The translations under genes and the position numbers were made by a program. This document shows positions 10,060 through 18,703 of a stretch of DNA of 64,000 nt, one piece after another (within the stretch, counting starts at the first letter, position 1; every line of letters begins with the position of its first letter). Where the stretch lies: contig DASQGZ010000034.1 of the NCBI GenBank assembly GCA_035632315.1, forward strand, positions 12,693-76,692, read 5' to 3'. Source of the DNA: Candidatus Kapaibacterium sp. Its GTDB lineage: Bacteria > Bacteroidota > Ignavibacteria > Palsa-1295. Below the pieces are notes generated by a model. The model did no database searches, was not told where the DNA came from, and saw only the letters and a program-made list of their open reading frames with translations.

Positions 10060-11448
10060 TTGATGAAAGGTAATGATATGAATTACGACGAAACCAACGA
10101 TACAATGTGGTCCGGCTCGCGCGATCTGATCGGCTCAGGAATGCCGCTTGAAAAATATAATTTCCCGAAAGACCCCCGCCAGATCGGCGGAGCGTATAGT
10201 GTCGAGGAGAATGCAAAATTGCTCCTGCGCTATTTCTATTTCGAACGATTGTTGCTCCGATCGCTCGCCGGGTGGTCAATGGGTACGCCGGAATTCGAAG
10301 TAAAAGTAGAATACGGGCGCCACCTCTATTATCATTCGGAAGCGGCGATGGCATTTCGTACTCGGCTTTCGGAATTACGTTTCAATCCGGAAACAGCCGA
10401 TCATTATACGAATCAAGAGATCGAGTCGTTCTTTGCCGAACTCGTTCACGCCGAATCTCCTGCCCATTTTCTTGCTGGCGTGTACGGCGTGCTTGTACCG
10501 AATCTTATCAATACGTATCAGGAACACATGTCCTCGACCGATCAAGTCGCCGATGCTCCGACTGTTCGCATTTTCAAGCATATTCTTGCCGATTATACCG
10601 AAATGTATCTTTGGGGCAAAGAAGCGATCGAAGCATATATAAATGGAGGGTATGACGGAGCGAATATCGTCTTTTCCCAGATGCATATCGAGCAGATGCT
10701 CAGTTCGATCGGAGGGGTCTCCGGAAAAAAAGAGCGTTCCGTTACCCCGACAAATCTCCGCAGCGCTGGCAAAGGGATCTTCGAACGGTCATTCGTTGCC
10801 ACACGCGATCCTCGTTTCACAACGTTCGAGCATACATACGATTACCGCAAAGCTGACGAAGGAAAGATCGAATACGACTCAGAATATGAAGAGGCACAGC
10901 TTGACCTCATTCGTTCTCAGCGCGATGAACTCGATGCGATCGAGACGTTCAGCAATGTTCTTTACGAAATACGAGATGTGCCGTTCGGTTTCGATTACGA
11001 TCTGGCAAGAATCATTTATGATGAGTGCCGTCATACCGAACTCGGGTATAAAGCATTAATCGAGAAGGGGTTTGACCCATTCGACCTTGCTAATCGGCTA
11101 CTCGGTATCAAAGTGCGTACGAAACTGCCTCCTGAGTATTCGCTGGCTGAGATCAATTTGTTCGGCGAAGCAAATATTGTGCAGGAGGTTGCAAAACAAT
11201 CAAAAGCCGGTTATAAGAAAAAAGATATTTCCGGAATGCTTTTTGATTACGTCAATGCCGACGAGCGAACACACATCCAAAAAGGCACGCGTTGGCTAAC
11301 CTATCTTTTCAAGACCGACTCCATTACGGAGATCGAACAAAAGACGAAAGAAATAGCGATCGAACGGTTACTCGAACTTGGGATCATCGATCATGAAGTG
11401 GCGCTGACAATATCGCATAAAGAGCTGGCAAAAATTATCGGCGAGTAA
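10060..11448 (+). CDS. ferritin-like/diiron-carboxylate superfamily protein (hypothetical, 462 aa)
   Basis: two ExxH motifs about 80 residues apart (YDECRHTELG and NADERTHIQKG), each preceded by a Glu about 25 residues upstream; N-terminal half may be a degenerate duplicate. Confidence 0.5.
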   Translation: MMKGNDMNYDETNDTMWSGSRDLIGSGMPLEKYNFPKDPRQIGGAYSVEENAKLLLRYFYFERLLLRSLAGWSMGTPEFEVKVEYGRHLYYHSEAAMAFRTRLSELRFNPETADHYTNQEIESFFAELVHAESPAHFLAGVYGVLVPNLINTYQEHMSSTDQVADAPTVRIFKHILADYTEMYLWGKEAIEAYINGGYDGANIVFSQMHIEQMLSSIGGVSGKKERSVTPTNLRSAGKGIFERSFVATRDPRFTTFEHTYDYRKADEGKIEYDSEYEEAQLDLIRSQRDELDAIETFSNVLYEIRDVPFGFDYDLARIIYDECRHTELGYKALIEKGFDPFDLANRLLGIKVRTKLPPEYSLAEINLFGEANIVQEVAKQSKAGYKKKDISGMLFDYVNADERTHIQKGTRWLTYLFKTDSITEIEQKTKEIAIERLLELGIIDHEVALTISHKELAKIIGE

Positions 11449-11450
11449 TT

Positions 11451-11478
11451 AAAAAGGCGGCTGTGAGCCGCCTTTTTA
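11451..11478. terminator. bidirectional rho-independent terminator between convergent genes
   Basis: aaaaaGGCGGCTGTGAGCCGCCttttt. Confidence 0.7.
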
Positions 11479-11484
11479 ATAAGC

Positions 11485-13332
11485 TTAGTGTGTATGTGCC
11501 GCTTCGCTTGACGGTCCCCAACCCGGCGGAGGCATATTCTGCGGGTAGTAATCCATTCCCTCAGGCGCATCGGGCGAACTATATTCGTATGGACCACGGA
11601 ATACGCGCGGCTGTTCGGCAAAATTGCCGTGCGGGATCGGATAGGTCAACGTCCATTCGAGCGTGTTTGCATGCCACGGATTCGTCGGGGCTTTCTTCCC
11701 TCTGAAAATACTATAGATCAGATTGAAGAGAAAGATTAATACCGAGAACCCGAGTATAAATGCGCACACCGACATAAATGCATTCAGCGGCTGTAAGTGT
11801 GCCAAATGCGCGTATTGCGTGTAATCGTAAATACGGCGCATCATCCCGTTAATGCCAAGAATATGCATCGGGAAAAAGACTCCGTTGAATGATAAGAATA
11901 ACAGCCAGAAGTGGATCTTTCCTAGTGTTTCGTTCATCATCCGCCCGAACATCTTCGGAAACCAGTAATAAATACCGGCAAAGATCGACATGATCGACCC
12001 TCCAAAGAGTACATAGTGGATATGACCGACAATGAAATATGTGTCATGGATAAAAATATCGACAGGTGTTGACGCCATAAAGATACCGGAAAGACCTCCG
12101 ATCACGAACATCGACACAAACCCGACAGCGAACATAAACGCCGTCGTGAATTTGATATTCGCCCCCCATAGCGTGCCAAGCCAATTGAATGTCTTAATGG
12201 CGGACGGGACTGCGATCACCATCGTCGAGATCATAAATGTCGTGCCGAGCAGCGGATTCATTCCGGACTGGAACATATGATGACCCCAGACGATAAATCC
12301 GAGAAAAGCAATGCCGGCGATCGCAAGTACCATTGCTTTATACCCGAAGATCGGTTTACGGGCAAACACAGAAATTATTTCCGAGGCAAGCCCCATCGCA
12401 GGTAAGATCATAATATATACTTCAGGATGTCCGAAGAACCAGAAGAGATGCTGCCAAAGCAATACCTGCCCGCCGCCGGCATGACCGGTGATCGGAGAAC
12501 CGGCTACAAGCAATCCGTGCGGAATGAAGAAGCTCGTACCGATCGTGCGATCGAAGAGCAACAGTACCAGTGCTGCGGCAAGAACCGGAACAGCAAGTAA
12601 CAGCAAGATCGCTGTAATAAAGATCGCCCAGATCGGAAGCGGCATACGAAACCACGACATTCCCGGTGCGCGCATATTGACGACCGTCGTAATGTAATTG
12701 ATCGCTCCCATCAGCGAAGCACAGCCAGAAAATAGCAAGCTGATCAGCCAAAGATTTTGCCCCCACGTTACACCGGAAAGCTCAGGAACAGCCGAAAGCG
12801 TCGGATAGCTTGTCCAACCACCGCCTGCCGCTCCGCCCGGTACTAAAAATGCGCTCATCATCACGAGGCCGGCAAGCAGAGCAAGCCAGAACGATGCCAT
12901 ATTCAGTTTCGGGAAGGCCATATCACCCGCCCCAAGTTGCAACGGTATCAAGAAATTCGCAAATGTGCCCATTAAAAATGGCATCACTGCAAAAAAGATC
13001 ATGAATGTTGCGTGCATTGTGAACGCGGAATTGTAGAATTCAGGAAGAATAATACCGCCGGCGATCATTTTCTCACCGAAGATCAATGAGAAAAACTTTG
13101 CCATGATCGTATAAAACCAACCTTGATGATCAGGCCATCCAAGCTGCAAGCGAACGACAAGAGCAAGCAAACCGCCGACAAGCAGGAAGAAGCAGCTTGT
13201 AAATAAGAACTGAATACCGATCGTTTTATGATCGGTCGAGAAGATGTATTTTCTCCAGAAACTGAGTTCGTGATGCTCGTGAGCATGGGCTCCGGCAATT
13301 TTTATTTCTTTTGGTAGTACGATCGTTGACAT
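11485..13332 (-). CDS. coxA: cytochrome c oxidase subunit I (heme-copper oxidase)
   Basis: 615 aa, 12+ TM; canonical subunit I sequence blocks (GHPEVYIMILPAMG, WGHHMF, HDTYFIVGHIHYVL); GAGG Shine-Dalgarno upstream of ATG. Confidence 0.9.
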   Translation of the reverse strand: MSTIVLPKEIKIAGAHAHEHHELSFWRKYIFSTDHKTIGIQFLFTSCFFLLVGGLLALVVRLQLGWPDHQGWFYTIMAKFFSLIFGEKMIAGGIILPEFYNSAFTMHATFMIFFAVMPFLMGTFANFLIPLQLGAGDMAFPKLNMASFWLALLAGLVMMSAFLVPGGAAGGGWTSYPTLSAVPELSGVTWGQNLWLISLLFSGCASLMGAINYITTVVNMRAPGMSWFRMPLPIWAIFITAILLLLAVPVLAAALVLLLFDRTIGTSFFIPHGLLVAGSPITGHAGGGQVLLWQHLFWFFGHPEVYIMILPAMGLASEIISVFARKPIFGYKAMVLAIAGIAFLGFIVWGHHMFQSGMNPLLGTTFMISTMVIAVPSAIKTFNWLGTLWGANIKFTTAFMFAVGFVSMFVIGGLSGIFMASTPVDIFIHDTYFIVGHIHYVLFGGSIMSIFAGIYYWFPKMFGRMMNETLGKIHFWLLFLSFNGVFFPMHILGINGMMRRIYDYTQYAHLAHLQPLNAFMSVCAFILGFSVLIFLFNLIYSIFRGKKAPTNPWHANTLEWTLTYPIPHGNFAEQPRVFRGPYEYSSPDAPEGMDYYPQNMPPPGWGPSSEAAHTH

Positions 13333-13353
13333 ACGTTATCCTCTCTTACAATC

Positions 13354-14199
13354 TTATTTCGAAGCGACGGTGGAAGCAGAATCGGAAGCCGGGGCAGCGG
13401 GTGCGGGCGGCGGTGCTGCTTGCGAAGCAAGCCAATGATTGAGCGAATCGCGCGTAACAACATGCACGAATCCTTTCATTCGGTAATGGCCGAGACCACA
13501 GAGTTCAGCGCAGGCGATCTCAAGATCGCGAACTTCGGTCGGTTGTATCCAGACAGCCGTCGGCATTCCGGGAACCGCGTCTTGCTTGATACGAAATTCA
13601 GGTACAAAGAAACTATGGATCACATCCTGCCCTTCGAGTTTGATCTGCACCGGCTCATTGACAGCAAGATATAATTGATTGATCGTATTAATGTCATCTG
13701 CCGTATTGAACTTGCCGTCAGGACCAGGATAGGTAATATCCCACTCAAACTGACGCGGACGGATCTGTATGACCGGAGCGCCTTTCGGAAATCTGTCAGG
13801 GCTTTTGACCTCAGACCAGATCGCATTACTAAAGATCGCAAGAAATACCAATATGATTGCCGGCAACGCAGTCCAGGTAATTTCGAGCTTGTTGTTACCG
13901 TGATAGTATGTCGCTTTACGGCCGGGCTTCTGACGATACTTCCAAAGAAAATAGACCAGACAAACCTCGACCAGCACGAACACGACAAGCGTAATCCACA
14001 GTATAACATTAAAGAGACTGTCAATGTCAGGAGCGTATGTGCTCGACTTATCCGGAAGGGCATTCATCCACCAGGAATACCAGTGATGGTTCGGATAGCG
14101 GGGTTTGACATCCTGCGCCAAAAGCGCTGTCGGAAGCGCGAGGAGAAGGGCTCCGACACATCGCCCGATTCCTCGCTTAATACCTGAGATCATCAGCAA
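13354..14199 (-). CDS. coxB: cytochrome c oxidase subunit II (CuA site; no cytochrome c domain; Ala/Pro-rich C-terminal tail)
   Basis: CuA motif H...CAELCGLGHYRM; two N-terminal TM helices; C-terminus AAPPPAPAAPASDSASTVASK. Confidence 0.85.
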   Translation of the reverse strand: MLMISGIKRGIGRCVGALLLALPTALLAQDVKPRYPNHHWYSWWMNALPDKSSTYAPDIDSLFNVILWITLVVFVLVEVCLVYFLWKYRQKPGRKATYYHGNNKLEITWTALPAIILVFLAIFSNAIWSEVKSPDRFPKGAPVIQIRPRQFEWDITYPGPDGKFNTADDINTINQLYLAVNEPVQIKLEGQDVIHSFFVPEFRIKQDAVPGMPTAVWIQPTEVRDLEIACAELCGLGHYRMKGFVHVVTRDSLNHWLASQAAPPPAPAAPASDSASTVASK

Positions 14200-14275
14200 T
14201 AAAAAGTAGATCTATTAAAATTTTCCTCACAAAACAGCGAGGGGTACCATTCTACCCCTCGCTTATGACATTCGC

Positions 14276-15088
14276 TTATTGCGCTTTGAGGGTAAAGTCA
14301 ACTGTCTTGCTGTCTTTTGCAGCGACAGTAACTTTTTGATCGACACTCACGCCTTTACCGTCAACCGTCTCGTGCCAGCAGCTGATCGTGTAGTCCCCTG
14401 CCGGAACGCCTGCGATGGAGAATTTACCGTCATTTTTAGTAACTGCAAAGAACGGATGGTTCAGCACACCTGCATAGCAGTTCATCCAGCCGTGAACGTC
14501 GCATTTGATCGGTACCATCACCTCAACTTTGTCGAAGCTCTCTTCTTTATCCGGCGATCCCGGCGGCTGTCCGTCGTTGAACTGAGAGTTCTTGTCACCG
14601 TGTGAATGGATATTATGAAGTGTTTTATCGGAGTTCTTGATCACAAACTTCTGGCCTGTGAGAATTCCAAAAACGTGAGGCTCATATTGACAGCCATGCT
14701 GATCAAGCGTGACCGGTGTTGTAGGAGCGGCATACGTTTTCCCGCCGAGTCCGTCTTTAATGTAAATAAACGCGTTCGAAAGCGTCCCGCCGTCCCCGGT
14801 GATCCAATGGTCTTCCATAACCGCACCGGAATGTGCTGATTTACAAACCGGATCGGCATCCATCGCGATCGCTTTATTTGCCGGAGCCGCTCCATCGAGC
14901 TTCACTGTTCCGGTAATCGTCGCACCGTTTGCCATATCGACCGTTGCAACAGTCCCAGGGCCGCCTGCGGCGCCATTGTCTCCACCTTCATTTTCATCTT
15001 CGCTCTTCTTGCCGCCGCAACTGATGAGTCCGACAACAACAAGTAACGACAGGAAATATGATAACTTACGTAATGTTCGAGTATTCAT
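14276..15088 (-). CDS. lipoprotein with type-1 copper (cupredoxin, amicyanin-like) site fused to a CarboxypepD_reg-like domain
   Basis: lipobox LISC; Gly/Ala-rich linker; His (LHNIHSHGD) about 37 residues before CDVHGWM (C-x2-H-x2-M); C-terminal DGKFSIAGVPAGDYTISCWHE...VDFTLKAQ. Confidence 0.5.
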   Translation of the reverse strand: MNTRTLRKLSYFLSLLVVVGLISCGGKKSEDENEGGDNGAAGGPGTVATVDMANGATITGTVKLDGAAPANKAIAMDADPVCKSAHSGAVMEDHWITGDGGTLSNAFIYIKDGLGGKTYAAPTTPVTLDQHGCQYEPHVFGILTGQKFVIKNSDKTLHNIHSHGDKNSQFNDGQPPGSPDKEESFDKVEVMVPIKCDVHGWMNCYAGVLNHPFFAVTKNDGKFSIAGVPAGDYTISCWHETVDGKGVSVDQKVTVAAKDSKTVDFTLKAQ

Positions 15089-15244: not shown

Positions 15245-16096
15245 ATGAATATCCAACTTCAAAACACATATAATGAATGCCGCAGAATCGCGGCACATTA
15301 TGAAAATTTCCCTGTAGGTTCGGTACTCATCCCAAAACGATTGAGGCACCATTTTTATGCATTCTATGCATTTATGCGCACCGCAGATGATTTCGCCGAT
15401 CTGCCGAACCGGTCGCGTGAAAAAAGGTTACGACTTCTCGAAGACTGGCGGGACAAATTACAAATGATCTTATCGGGCGGTACTGTCGATTCTCCGATCT
15501 TTATCGCGCTTGCCAATACTATTACAGAATGTGATCTTGCGAGTGAGCCGTTAAAAAAATTACTCGAAGCATTTGAGTTCGACGCACGCGGAGATGTCCG
15601 CTTCGAAACATTCGAAGATCTTCGGTGGTACACTTCTCGTTCAGCCGACCCGGTCGGCGAACTCGTTCTTGCGCTCTTCGGCTATCGTGATCAGAGGCGC
15701 GTCAAATTATCAAATGACATTTGTACAGCCCTGCAGCTCCTGAATTTTATTCAGGATATTGCAGAAGACCTATCGAACGATCGTTTTTACTTCCCGAATG
15801 AAGATTGGAACATGTTCGGTATCGAGCCTTCGAAGCGCCCCGATCTCGAACGGCTTGCATTGCTCTGTCTGTTCGAACTCGAACGGGTTGAATCGCTCCT
15901 CGATCGTGGCGCGCCGCTTGCCGAAGCTGTCGGTGGGCGGTTAGCATTCGAGCTTCGCGCTATTATCCATTCTGCCCGCCGATTATCGCAAAAAATCGCT
16001 AAAAACGATGGTAACACTTATTTAACGCGCCCAACACTCGGAAAAAGGGAACGTTTCGCTGTGCTTTTACAGTCTTTGATGTTCAGAGCAGCATAA
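15245..16096 (+). CDS. hpnC: squalene/phytoene synthase family protein, HpnC-like (hydroxysqualene synthase)
   Basis: 283 aa; N-terminal HYENFPVGS...YAFMRTADDFAD (Asp-rich motif 1); trans-isoprenyl diphosphate synthase head-to-head fold. Confidence 0.6.
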   Translation: MNIQLQNTYNECRRIAAHYENFPVGSVLIPKRLRHHFYAFYAFMRTADDFADLPNRSREKRLRLLEDWRDKLQMILSGGTVDSPIFIALANTITECDLASEPLKKLLEAFEFDARGDVRFETFEDLRWYTSRSADPVGELVLALFGYRDQRRVKLSNDICTALQLLNFIQDIAEDLSNDRFYFPNEDWNMFGIEPSKRPDLERLALLCLFELERVESLLDRGAPLAEAVGGRLAFELRAIIHSARRLSQKIAKNDGNTYLTRPTLGKRERFAVLLQSLMFRAA

Positions 16097-17028
16097 TGAC
16101 AGACATACGACCCGTTCATAGCGCGGAATCCATTTTTTTAGAAGAGCCTTTGCCTGTCGCATCGACCGACGGCAAGAGTAATTTCTTCTACTCCTTCTCG
16201 CTTTTGCCGCGCGATGAACGCGAGGCACTCCAGTCAGTATATGAATTTTGCCGTTATACCGACGACCTCGTTGATGAAGATCTGCCGCTTGAAATCCCGG
16301 GCATCGATGTCAAAAAAGAAGTAGCGCTCGAAAAGAAACGCGTTCGGCTCGATTGGTGGCGCGCTGAAGTAGAAAAGTGCTATGCAGGAACGAGTAAGCA
16401 TCCGATCCTTCGTAATCTATATAAGGTCATCTTACGCTTCAAAATTCCGAAGCAGTATTTCCTGACACTTATCGACGGTGTCGAGATGGATCTCGTCAAG
16501 AATCGTTATGAGACGTTCGACGAACTGCGGGAATATTGCTATGCCGTAGCCAGTATTGTCGGTCTCGTCACGATAGAAATTTTCGGTTACAAGTTCGAGC
16601 GCACGAAAGAATATGCGATCGATCTCGGTATTGCGCTGCAACTAACGAATATTTTACGCGACGTAAAAAAAGATGCTTCGATGGGGCGCATCTATCTCCC
16701 ACGTGAAGACATGGAATGCTTTGGCGTAACCGAAGAAGATATTCTGCATGGCAATTACAATCTGCCGTTCATTAACCTAATGAAGTTCGAGGTCGCGCGC
16801 GCGCGTGAGCATTACACGTCTGCACGGATGAAGCTTGGCAAAGGCGAGCGTTTCACGCTTTTCGCCGCTCAGATAATGGATGCGATCTATTTCCGATTAC
16901 TTCGCAAGATCGAGCTTGCAGAGTATAATGTCTTTCAAAAGCGTATCACAGTCAGCACACCGCATAAGATCTTGATCGCATTTCGGTTCTGGTTTTCAAG
17001 CGTGATCTTTCGCGAACGCGGAAGCTGA
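16096..17028 (+). CDS. hpnD: squalene/phytoene synthase family protein, HpnD/CrtB-like (presqualene diphosphate synthase)
   Basis: 310 aa; FYYSFSLLPRDEREALQSVYEFCRYTDDLVDE; second Asp-rich motif ILRDVKKD; ATGA overlap with hpnC-like gene. Confidence 0.6.
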   Translation: MTDIRPVHSAESIFLEEPLPVASTDGKSNFFYSFSLLPRDEREALQSVYEFCRYTDDLVDEDLPLEIPGIDVKKEVALEKKRVRLDWWRAEVEKCYAGTSKHPILRNLYKVILRFKIPKQYFLTLIDGVEMDLVKNRYETFDELREYCYAVASIVGLVTIEIFGYKFERTKEYAIDLGIALQLTNILRDVKKDASMGRIYLPREDMECFGVTEEDILHGNYNLPFINLMKFEVARAREHYTSARMKLGKGERFTLFAAQIMDAIYFRLLRKIELAEYNVFQKRITVSTPHKILIAFRFWFSSVIFRERGS

Positions 17029-17071
17029 TGTACTATTTGTAAATTTTTCGCCACGAATTCGTCTCGTATTC

Positions 17072-18703
17072 ATGAATAAATTAATTGGTTTTTTTCTTTT
17101 ACTGATCACCTCGCCGGTATTCTCTCAGATCACGGTCGAAGGCACCGTCACCGACGCGAATGGAAAAGCGCCGATCCTTGCTCATGCACATATTGGGCAG
17201 TATAATGATATGGAAAAAAGTACCGACGTACTATGTGACCAGAATGGACATTTTACTGTGCAAGTCCCTGCATTCGGTATTTATTCGCTTCGTCTGAGCG
17301 CTGTCAATCATCAGGAAGTTAATGTGCAGGTCATTCTCGATGGAACGGAAAAAGATGTAATAGTTAGTGTCAGACTTCAGACGAACGCGTATCAGATCGA
17401 AACCCCAAAAGTCACCGGCGACTGGAATAAATTTGCTTTCTCTACTGCCGAGGTGATGAAAGTATCTCAAACAGCCGGTGGAAAGACCATTTACACGGCC
17501 GAACTCACTGCGACAGCCGATACGCTAGCGTATCAATTATTGGGTGTTGCCGGCGAGCATAGTGTTAATGGCACTCAAGCTGACTACTTTTCCTATGACG
17601 GCGGAGGAGATTATCGCTCGGTCATCAAAACTCACAAAGGCGATAAAGTAACGGTCACGTTTGACCCGGAAAAATTACCGGCGACACAAACGACAGGACT
17701 TCCCATCATTGAATTCAAAAATAGCCCATTCCTCAAACGATCGTCAGAACTTTCTACAGCGATCAATAAAATGCATCGAGAGACGTTCCCAGATCCTTCA
17801 AGCGAAACTCCTGTATCTGCGGAGAAATACAAAGAGCTATTTCGATTTATTCAAAAGGCGCAAGCCGATGCTAATACCTCCGGCGACAAGCGCTTGGCAG
17901 AATTTGCGACCGTAATGCTCGTAAAAGAATTTACACCGGAAGCCGAGTTCGGCACAGCAAATGCCGAGCTTGTTCTGCAAACAGTACGGGCTGAGTCGCC
18001 GCTCTGGGTCTTTGCTCCGAACGAGATCATCGAGGTCACCAAACTCGCAGCAAAAGAACGCAGTGAAACATATCGCAATGCGTTGAAAAAGAATCCGCAA
18101 AAACTTGTTCGTGCTATTGCGCTGGCGACTGAAATGCAACATGCTATCTCTGTTGAGGATAAGACAAACTGGAAAAGCCTGTATGTAACTCTAAAGAACG
18201 ATTACAACGATGTTCCCGAAGTCAAATGGTTCATTCTTCAAAATAATCCCGATGCACTTGTTCAAACCGGGAAACTCGTACCGTCTTTCGAGCTGGCATT
18301 GTTAGACGGCTCAGGAAATGTAAGTAATACCTCAATGCTCGGCAAGTATTATATGATAGACTTTTGGGCAACGTGGTGCGGGCCCTGTGTACATGAGATG
18401 CCTGCGGTTCACAAAGCATACGAAAAATTCAGAGGTAAAAAAGGATTTGAGATCCTCTCAATTTCCATGGACGCAAAACAAGACAATATCGCCCCCTTCC
18501 GTGCAAAGAAATGGAAGATGCCGTGGCTCCACGCATTCATCCCCGGTGTGTTCAATGCCGATCTTGCAAAGAAATTCGAAATCGCAGGTATTCCAAAACC
18601 AATTCTCGTCAGCCCTGAAGGTAAGATTGTTGCAAAAGACGACGATCTGCGCGGCGAAAATCTTGAAAAAACACTGGCGAAGTATTTGGGAGAACCGAAT
18701 TAG
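17072..18703 (+). CDS. secreted thiol-disulfide oxidoreductase, TlpA/ResA-like thioredoxin domain with large N-terminal domain
   Basis: signal peptide; C-terminal YYMIDFWATWCGPCVHEMPAV (WCGPC active site). Confidence 0.75.
   Translation: MNKLIGFFLLLITSPVFSQITVEGTVTDANGKAPILAHAHIGQYNDMEKSTDVLCDQNGHFTVQVPAFGIYSLRLSAVNHQEVNVQVILDGTEKDVIVSVRLQTNAYQIETPKVTGDWNKFAFSTAEVMKVSQTAGGKTIYTAELTATADTLAYQLLGVAGEHSVNGTQADYFSYDGGGDYRSVIKTHKGDKVTVTFDPEKLPATQTTGLPIIEFKNSPFLKRSSELSTAINKMHRETFPDPSSETPVSAEKYKELFRFIQKAQADANTSGDKRLAEFATVMLVKEFTPEAEFGTANAELVLQTVRAESPLWVFAPNEIIEVTKLAAKERSETYRNALKKNPQKLVRAIALATEMQHAISVEDKTNWKSLYVTLKNDYNDVPEVKWFILQNNPDALVQTGKLVPSFELALLDGSGNVSNTSMLGKYYMIDFWATWCGPCVHEMPAVHKAYEKFRGKKGFEILSISMDAKQDNIAPFRAKKWKMPWLHAFIPGVFNADLAKKFEIAGIPKPILVSPEGKIVAKDDDLRGENLEKTLAKYLGEPN

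Follow-up and report, generated by a model that had tools for sequence, protein, structure and literature searches.

Which protein delivers electrons to a haem-copper oxidase whose genes are accompanied by no cytochrome c? The question is raised by a 64,000-nt stretch of Candidatus Kapaibacterium sp. (contig DASQGZ010000034.1 of assembly GCA_035632315.1, positions 12,693-76,692), referred to below as the window. Three co-directional open reading frames (ORFs) lie head to tail on its minus strand: a lipoprotein gene, here called X, followed by coxB and coxA for oxidase subunits II and I (Table 1). A protein 100% identical to X is on record from a Candidatus Kapabacteria metagenome-assembled genome (MAG). 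Analysis of its sequence, predicted fold and gene neighbourhoods suggests that X is probably a lipid-anchored type-1 copper protein that passes electrons singly to CuA of the neighbouring aa3-type oxidase, a task performed elsewhere by a soluble or fused cytochrome c. Blue-copper replacements of cytochrome c occur in chloroplasts, cyanobacteria, Chloroflexus, haloarchaea, Sulfolobus and acidophilic iron oxidisers. To our knowledge, none has been reported from Acidobacteriota or from the Kapabacteria/Ignavibacteria branch.

The oxidase of the window has a CuA site and no cytochrome c domain

CoxB consists of a signal-like N-terminus, two transmembrane (TM) helices and a CuA domain. The CuA motif CAELCGLGHYRM, the upstream His within DVIHSF and the electron-entry Trp within QFEWD are all present. 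The protein ends in the Ala/Pro-rich tail AAPPPAPAAPASDSASTVASK and contains no CxxCH, so that the C-terminal haem domain that marks subunit II of caa3-type oxidases is lacking. The ATG at 14193 may be an alternative start of coxB. CoxA has 12 hydrophobic segments, predicted to be TM helices, and a GHPEVY motif. By motif, TM-helix and CuA criteria, the enzyme is assigned to the A-type (A1, putatively aa3-type) haem-copper oxygen reductases. The match of CoxA to TIGR02891 extends over 549 residues for 504 profile positions, indicating about 45 extra residues, which probably lie between the first two TM helices.

CxxCH was not found in any ORF of at least 90 aa across the whole window, and no alternative complex III (ACIII) was found in it. 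Translated searches (tblastn) of the window with cox3, cox4, ctaA, ctaB, DUF420, Rieske, cytochrome b and octahaem cytochrome seeds gave no match. A preliminary description of this locus had stated that coxB carries CuA and an Ala/Pro-rich tail without a fused cytochrome, that the genes around it include no c-type cytochrome, and that those for subunits III and IV are absent; all of this was borne out. Among CoxB proteins encoded next to X in related loci, CxxCH was seen in 0 of 32. The full CuA motif was present in 30 of the 32 when Gln-containing variants (CSQLC, CAQLC) are counted as CuA, the other two being truncated ORFs.

X is a cupredoxin nested inside a split beta-sandwich

Conservation in X was assessed in two alignments, one of 55 homologues (45-79% identical to X) and one of 88 sequences from genomes of many phyla (about 45% identical overall). 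By its signal peptide and lipobox, X is predicted to be exported to the periplasmic side. The lipid-anchor Cys is found at its column in 71 of the 88 homologues, and nearly all of them have a low-complexity stretch rich in G, S, E, P, A and T after it.

No cupredoxin family of Pfam or NCBIfam was detected in whole X at E ≤0.1, and the excised cupredoxin domain matched no Pfam family even at E ≤1. Precomputed Pfam lists of 120 homologues likewise contained beta-sandwich families only. The cupredoxin was therefore identified through structure and profile alignment. The AlphaFold2 model of X had a mean predicted local distance difference test score (pLDDT) of 86.9 and a predicted template modelling score of 0.79. 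Foldseek comparison of the model with the Protein Data Bank (PDB) returned almost exclusively cupredoxins (amicyanin, plastocyanin, pseudoazurin, CuA domains and the Nitrosopumilus protein 5fc9), with probability 1.0, E values of 1e-4 to 1e-3 and target-normalised template modelling scores of 0.6-0.74. X has the Greek-key beta-sandwich fold that characterises cupredoxins. Phmmer searches of PDB sequences with X alone gave weak beta-sandwich matches only; 5fc9 and amicyanin came within reach once the family profile was used.

The C-terminus of X (residues 215-268) matched CarboxypepD_reg (PF13620) with 30.0 bits, just under the cut-off of 32.3. Judged by the gathering threshold over the full profile together with the seven-strand sandwich, X was scored as containing this transthyretin-like domain. 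The cupredoxin sits nested inside the sandwich, whose strands are split to either side of it, and the two are not a tandem fusion. The proposed fusion to CarboxypepD_reg thus holds as to the presence of the domain, but not as an end-to-end arrangement. By fold and ligands X is a member of the cupredoxin superfamily that lies outside all named subfamilies; since no curated cupredoxin model detects it, X is filed as a new subfamily and not under an existing one.

The predicted copper ligands of X are invariant

The ligand set of X is H158 ... C196-x2-H199-x2-M202. H158, N159, C196, H199 and M202 are invariant in the alignment of 55 homologues and in 88 of 88 sequences of the broader one, where W201 is found in 87. 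C82, C133, Q130, D154, N171, E189, W238 and E240 are also invariant in both. Complete conservation of the ligands and of C82/C133 among 88 homologues that are only about 45% identical is not due to chance. C82 and C133 probably form a disulfide.

The family profile pairs NSDxTLHNIH and KCDVHGW of X with NDDSVPHNIQ and CSFHPW of 5fc9 (E 0.0018). In an hhalign comparison with a manually entered amicyanin sequence, LHNIH aligned with the amicyanin segment PHNVH, which carries the ligand His53. The C-x2-H-x2-M spacing of X is identical to that of amicyanin. Given the invariant ligands, the aligned positions and the same spacing, the earlier assignment of an amicyanin-like type-1 ligand set to a lipid-anchored protein is correct.

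Other metal sites and activities were considered and rejected. C82-x3-H86 is not a haem or metal motif of the family, as its His varies among homologues. Nor is a second metal site made up of H161, H211, H239 and E240 a universal feature, with H211 in 76 and H239 in 72 of the 88 sequences; Asn/Ser and Gln stand in place of these two residues in some members. Catalysis like that of NirK or multicopper oxidases was suggested by the top structural match, 6hbe; the alignment with it covers a single cupredoxin domain only, and X shows neither type-2 copper ligands nor an HC/HCH bridge next to Cys196.

In many genomes X stands between complex III and complex IV genes

To place X in a wider context, 86 related loci were annotated by BLAST with seed proteins; 81 of these had room downstream of X. 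The same-strand gene directly 3' of X was ctaA in 45, coxB in 10, coxA in 9 and ctaB in 2 of the 81 (66 in all), and in 8 more an oxidase or haem A gene lay within 8 kb. This linkage spans about ten phylum-level labels.

On the upstream side, a same-strand cytochrome c gene immediately precedes X in 37 of the 86 loci, at gaps of 17-40 bp. Most of these ORFs span about 1000-1100 aa and contain CxxCH eight times (octahaem); Pfam and NCBIfam describe them as multihaem plus class I cytochrome c. Ahead of this gene come three others, for a Rieske, a cytochrome b6-like and a subunit IV-like protein, the full set being present in 23 loci with enough upstream sequence. No adjacent cytochrome is found in the window, nor in 36 loci for which ample upstream sequence is available. 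In genomes that bear the labels of five or more phyla, X is the gene that parts a complex III analogue from complex IV (Table 1). Since the family occupies this place in many soil bacteria, X probably carries electrons between the two complexes.

The upstream operon of Rieske, b6, subunit IV and octahaem genes occupies 2286-7973 in L011 and 226-7986 in L058. It was also seen in L012, L020, L023, L027, L033-L035, L043-L046, L048, L049, L061, L063, L064, L066, L068, L072, L080 and L083, and Fer4 and HEAT-repeat genes sometimes precede it. The cytochrome b that it encodes is nearest to Geobacter ExtP/ExtQ models and to cytochrome b6. The operon seems to encode a variant of complex III, not studied so far, in Acidobacteriota as well as other phyla.

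The window itself and L087 (73% identical) share a trimmed X-coxB-coxA cluster followed by DUF455 and sodium:solute symporter genes. Close relatives keep cox3-like, ctaA, ctaB, SCO1 and DUF420 genes after coxA, so that the missing subunit III reflects a local rearrangement in the window genome and L087.

A hairpin separates X from the oxidase genes

The 76-nt spacer between X and coxB contains a terminator-like hairpin (Table 1). The minimum free energy of the spacer was -24.3 kcal/mol, with z = -3.4 against dinucleotide shuffles. Hairpins of unrelated sequence were found at the same place in L005 (8985-9014) and L087 (10838-10870), each followed by a T-rich run. In 43 loci the gap after X measures 40 nt or more; their median z was -3.1, and z was below -2 in 28 of them. 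Because of this strong hairpin, a single three-gene operon is not established: the preliminary description of X as the first gene of an oxidase operon stands as to three co-directional ORFs, but not as to their joint transcription. This leaves three arrangements: X transcribed by itself, X closing a complex III operon, or X split from the oxidase genes by an attenuating terminator. A hairpin after X means that X can be made in excess of the oxidase, as is usual for mobile carriers, and its recurrence is as expected for a carrier needed in excess.

Proposed role of X and the alternatives to it

In the proposed mechanism, X would be acylated at Cys24, held on the outer (periplasmic) face of the cytoplasmic membrane, and would swing on its tether of about 25 residues. 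It would bind one copper cycling between Cu(II) and Cu(I). Reduction would come from the haem c subunit of a quinol-oxidising complex, which in many Acidobacteriota would be the adjacent Rieske/cytochrome b complex and in the Kapabacteria genome would be encoded outside the 64 kb. The octahaem cytochrome, as c subunit of the complex III analogue, would then be the likely reductant of X and not its replacement. From X the electron would pass through the exposed His199 edge to CuA, then to haem a and on to a3-CuB. The beta-sandwich, with its invariant W238 and E240, might serve as a spacer or docking handle. The hairpin would allow X to be made in excess or as a separate unit. The blue-copper donor to CuA put forward in the preliminary description is thus supported by synteny and by the cytochrome-c-less CoxB; transfer of the electron itself is a prediction.

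Several points weigh against X as this donor. The window encodes no reductant for it, neither Rieske/cytochrome b nor ACIII nor cytochrome c, and in related loci X is found more often in front of the biogenesis genes ctaA-ctaB-DUF420 than in front of structural genes. The spatial clustering of the four ligands is a prediction from topological equivalence. In Kapabacteria-type X proteins the residues after the anchor Cys are Lys-rich and then acid-rich (CGGKKSEDENE, CGGKKDEEAEE; residues 25-35, 15014-14984 in the window), and in acidobacterial ones they are rich in Gly, Ser, Pro and Ala. The former stretch resembles the Bacteroidota signal for export of lipoproteins to the surface, and X in the outer membrane would be unable to reach CuA. 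Finally, the preliminary description had regarded a c-type cytochrome encoded just upstream of X as telling against a copper donor; none is present in the window, but one is in the 37 related loci mentioned above. Class I domains of the octahaem protein could feed CuA directly and make X an accessory.

The upstream cytochrome leaves open a role like that of AcoP of Acidithiobacillus ferrooxidans, a cupredoxin encoded with cox genes whose partner is cytochrome c oxidase (PMC4059628). X would in that case bind a c-type cytochrome and the oxidase, stabilise or tune them, or be part of a III-IV supercomplex, with the octahaem protein or another cytochrome c as the true donor. Such a role is attractive for the many loci in which the octahaem cytochrome adjoins X. 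It is nevertheless unlikely for the family, since the window and the 36 loci with ample upstream sequence have no adjacent cytochrome, and the short ligand loop of X and its closest structural neighbours are those of classical carriers. The C-x6-H-x4-M loop and the region-1/region-3 sequence that define the AcoP family were not found in X. Besides this longer loop, AcoP has a green copper site; it lacks a transthyretin-like domain and occurs only in acidophilic iron oxidisers. X resembles plastocyanin more than it resembles AcoP.

The remaining explanations are less probable still. Delivery of copper to CuA or CuB by X as a chaperone or assembly factor would suit its place among oxidase genes poorly where a dedicated SCO1 gene is present: in the L011 and P0022 clusters the role of CuA chaperone is already filled. 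His/Cys/His/Met ligands with an HN motif form the tight, buried redox site of carriers and not a labile one. X moreover has no Pfam match to PCuAC or SCO1 and neither CxxxC nor H(M)x10Mx21HxM, and neither the thioredoxin fold with CxxxC plus His of SCO1/SenC nor the exposed Cys/Met-rich site of CupA-like chaperones was found, so that this function is very unlikely. It is more doubtful yet that X is the periplasmic redox partner of the haem A synthase CtaA. We know of no established electron donor or acceptor of bacterial CtaA, and ctaA is the commonest immediate downstream neighbour of X. Yet in the window and L087 X remains attached to coxB-coxA with no ctaA nearby; where structural genes and ctaA share a strand it abuts the structural genes (L005, L058, L080); and a terminator-like hairpin usually parts it from ctaA. 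Equally improbable is a general periplasmic or surface blue-copper carrier for some other enzyme, the candidates being a denitrification enzyme, a metal oxidase or an extracellular electron-uptake system, which together share this slight chance. The oxidase linkage would then be incidental or regulatory. The Lys/acid-rich stretch after Cys24 would fit a surface location; but linkage in 66 of 81 loci, with 8 more within 8 kb, over about ten phylum-level labels is hard to call incidental, and the absence of type-2 ligands and of a bridge at Cys196 also argues against it.

With X as the shuttle between complexes III and IV, the missing donor of cytochrome-c-less aa3 oxidases would be identified, one more step of aerobic respiration would be tied to copper supply, and the nested architecture would be a new example of a redox module fitted with a docking domain. 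A broader reading is more tentative, and we regard it as possible though short of probable: X may represent an unnamed, widespread carrier class that forms the standard link between b6-type complex III and aa3 oxidase in Acidobacteriota and in parts of other groups (Bacteroidota/Kapabacteria, Gemmatimonadota, Marinimicrobia, Chloroflexota and Omnitrophota). If so, X and the b6-type complex would be the respiratory counterpart of the b6f-plastocyanin pair, and the core aerobic chain of abundant soil bacteria would depend on copper at the step from complex III to IV.

Comparison of X with known cupredoxins

The identity of X to solved cupredoxins is 12-24%. Amicyanin, plastocyanin and pseudoazurin, which like the rest have no Pfam model that detects X, are soluble, whereas X is lipid-anchored through a long linker, has its cupredoxin inserted in a transthyretin-like domain and carries the extra invariant pair C82/C133. 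The proposed partner of X is an aa3 oxidase, in contrast to methylamine dehydrogenase or photosystem I for amicyanin and plastocyanin. In proposed function X is nevertheless like plastocyanin, the partner of b6f. Auracyanin, halocyanin and sulfocyanin are membrane-anchored copper links to terminal oxidases. X is like auracyanin of Chloroflexus, halocyanin of haloarchaea and sulfocyanin SoxE of Sulfolobus in the role proposed for it, but these belong to other cupredoxin subfamilies (auracyanin being azurin-like) and are single-domain proteins with no nested beta-sandwich. Their upstream partners also differ from that of X, being ACIII for auracyanin and SoxM/SoxLN for sulfocyanin. The Nmar_1307-type cupredoxin of Nitrosopumilus maritimus (5fc9) is a 95-residue, single-domain archaeal protein with Arg at the position aligned with Met202 of X. 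Compared with other CarboxypepD_reg/transthyretin-like domains (carboxypeptidase D, the SusC N-terminal extension, Kustc1130), that of X is interrupted by a cupredoxin of about 130 residues.

That a blue-copper protein can serve an oxidase as electron donor is already known. No literature describing the X family, or a cupredoxin inserted in a CarboxypepD_reg domain, was found in a search of mainly open-access papers. What appears to be undescribed is the X family, with its nested architecture and with its place, in major soil phyla, between aa3 oxidases and a complex of the b6 type. PMC8239418 cites work of Degli Esposti (2020) for membrane-bound cupredoxins in COX operons of iron oxidisers, with which the X family may overlap in part.

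The X family is widespread and variously annotated

A word-indexed search with X gave 5967 matches at E ≤1e-3. When 1.84 billion cluster representatives were searched exhaustively with a profile, 3278 clusters (50% identity) matched at E ≤1e-30. The preliminary description had called the fusion to CarboxypepD_reg unusual; with these numbers the cupredoxin-in-sandwich architecture is common in nature, and the idea of a one-off has to be dropped. In GTDB contigs, one genome per species, at least 594 stretches encode a relative of X. The best 80 of these were mostly from Acidobacteriota (Vicinamibacterales, Bryobacterales, Terriglobia and Thermoanaerobaculia), the other labels among them being Kapaibacterium, Kryptoniota, Bacteroidota, Gemmatimonadaceae, Marinimicrobia, Chloroflexota, Omnitrophota and Binatia; such phylum labels come from MAGs and may be imperfect.

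Many relatives bear the name 'plastocyanin' at the Joint Genome Institute. At NCBI they are named 'carboxypeptidase regulatory-like domain-containing protein', 'TonB-dependent receptor' or 'hypothetical'. As the copper domain is invisible to Pfam and NCBIfam, genomes are annotated with names of this latter kind, and X goes unnoticed when the metabolism of these abundant soil and sediment bacteria is reconstructed.

Tandem pairs of X genes occur in L065 (6442-7386 and 7674-8663) and L079 (7947-8663 and 11093-11836). Some genomes encode double-length proteins of about 540-600 aa with two stretches matching the X profile. Proteins P0121, P0132, P0144, P0149 and P0171 are among the tandem or double-length cases.

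Features of the window and of related clusters

Table 1. Positions of the features discussed, with gene orders of related clusters. Positions are those of the window.
Feature	Position	Strand	Details
DUF455 gene	10060-11448	+	convergent with the coxA side
coxA, subunit I	11485-13332	-	615 aa; PF00115 (508.9 bits), TIGR02891 (650.4 bits, slightly below cut-off 670.75)
GHPEVY motif of CoxA	12415-12429	-	
coxB, subunit II	13354-14199	-	281 aa; TIGR02866 (164.9 bits, cut-off 147.7), PF02790, PF00116
Ala/Pro-rich tail of CoxB	13357-13431	-	AAPPPAPAAPASDSASTVASK
CuA motif of CoxB	13477-13512	-	CAELCGLGHYRM
Electron-entry Trp of CoxB	13738-13752	-	QFEWD
Terminator-like hairpin between X and coxB	14236-14263	-	11-bp stem with 7 G-C pairs, then GTTTTGTG; pattern scan
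Gene X	14276-15088	-	270-aa lipoprotein; ORF, AlphaFold2 model, fold matches
C-terminal strands of the transthyretin-like/CarboxypepD_reg sandwich	14279-14458	-	residues 211-270
Inserted cupredoxin domain	14459-14848	-	about residues 81-210
Copper-binding loop	14483-14503	-	C196-D-V-H199-G-W-M202; read from sequence
Ligand His158	14615-14617	-	HN motif
Invariant C133	14690-14692	-	
Invariant C82	14843-14845	-	
N-terminal strands of the split transthyretin-like/CarboxypepD_reg sandwich	14849-14947	-	residues 48-80
Disordered tether	14948-15016	-	residues 25-47, rich in Gly, Glu, Asp and Lys; pLDDT <50 for residues 23-42
Signal peptide and lipobox	15017-15088	-	L-I-S-C, predicted anchor Cys24; sequence, single hydrophobic stretch at residues 6-24
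hpnC/hpnD	15245-17028	+	squalene synthesis (as in hopanoid pathways); divergent from X
Secreted 543-aa protein	17072-18703	+	N-terminal CarboxypepD_reg-like and C-terminal TlpA/ResA-like thioredoxin (WCGPC) domains
L011 (Bryobacteraceae)			Rieske, cytochrome b6, subunit IV, octahaem c, X, ctaA, ctaB, ABC transporter, SCO1, DUF420
L058, L080 (Thermoanaerobaculia)			Fer4, HEAT, Rieske, cytochrome b6, subunit IV, octahaem c, X, coxA, cox3, cox4, coxB, ctaA, ctaB
Kapabacteria-type relatives, fuller cluster			X, coxB, coxA, ctaA, ctaB, 46-47 aa gene, cox3-like, SCO1, DUF420

The arrangement of hpnCD next to X is retained in L005, L006, L087 and the P0022 locus. The gene for the TlpA-like protein of 543 aa lies 2 kb from X, and counterparts are found near X in L005 (2275-3933) and L087 (2612-4252). 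TlpA-type thioredoxins prepare CoxB and Sco for copper insertion.

Downstream of ctaB, L011 encodes an ABC (ATP-binding cassette) ATPase, an ABC-2 permease, SCO1 and DUF420 (10531-13184). A Kapabacteria-type relative, the P0022 locus, has after ctaB a 46-aa gene, a cox3-like gene of 200 aa, SCO1, DUF420 and DUF983 (16454-17526). The short cox3-like protein matched Pfam COX3 with 22.7 bits, just under the cut-off of 23.8. In many Vicinamibacterales loci (L001, 11397-12335; L004, 11236-12213), X-ctaA-ctaB-DUF420 is followed by a gene for a protein of about 310 aa with an N-terminal CarboxypepD_reg domain and tetratricopeptide repeats, the third oxidase-cluster protein with such a sandwich domain.

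In L008 (3731-7888), L069 (3341-7885), L047 (490-1950) and L084 (15-1184), which carry Chloroflexota, Gemmatimonadaceae, Omnitrophota and Anaerolineales labels, the place of the octahaem protein ahead of X is taken by smaller cytochromes c, between one and three in number and mono- or dihaem. An ethylbenzene-dehydrogenase-like (EB_dh) haem-binding domain is present in one of them. The oxidases of L008 and L084 are of the A2 type (YSHPAVY).

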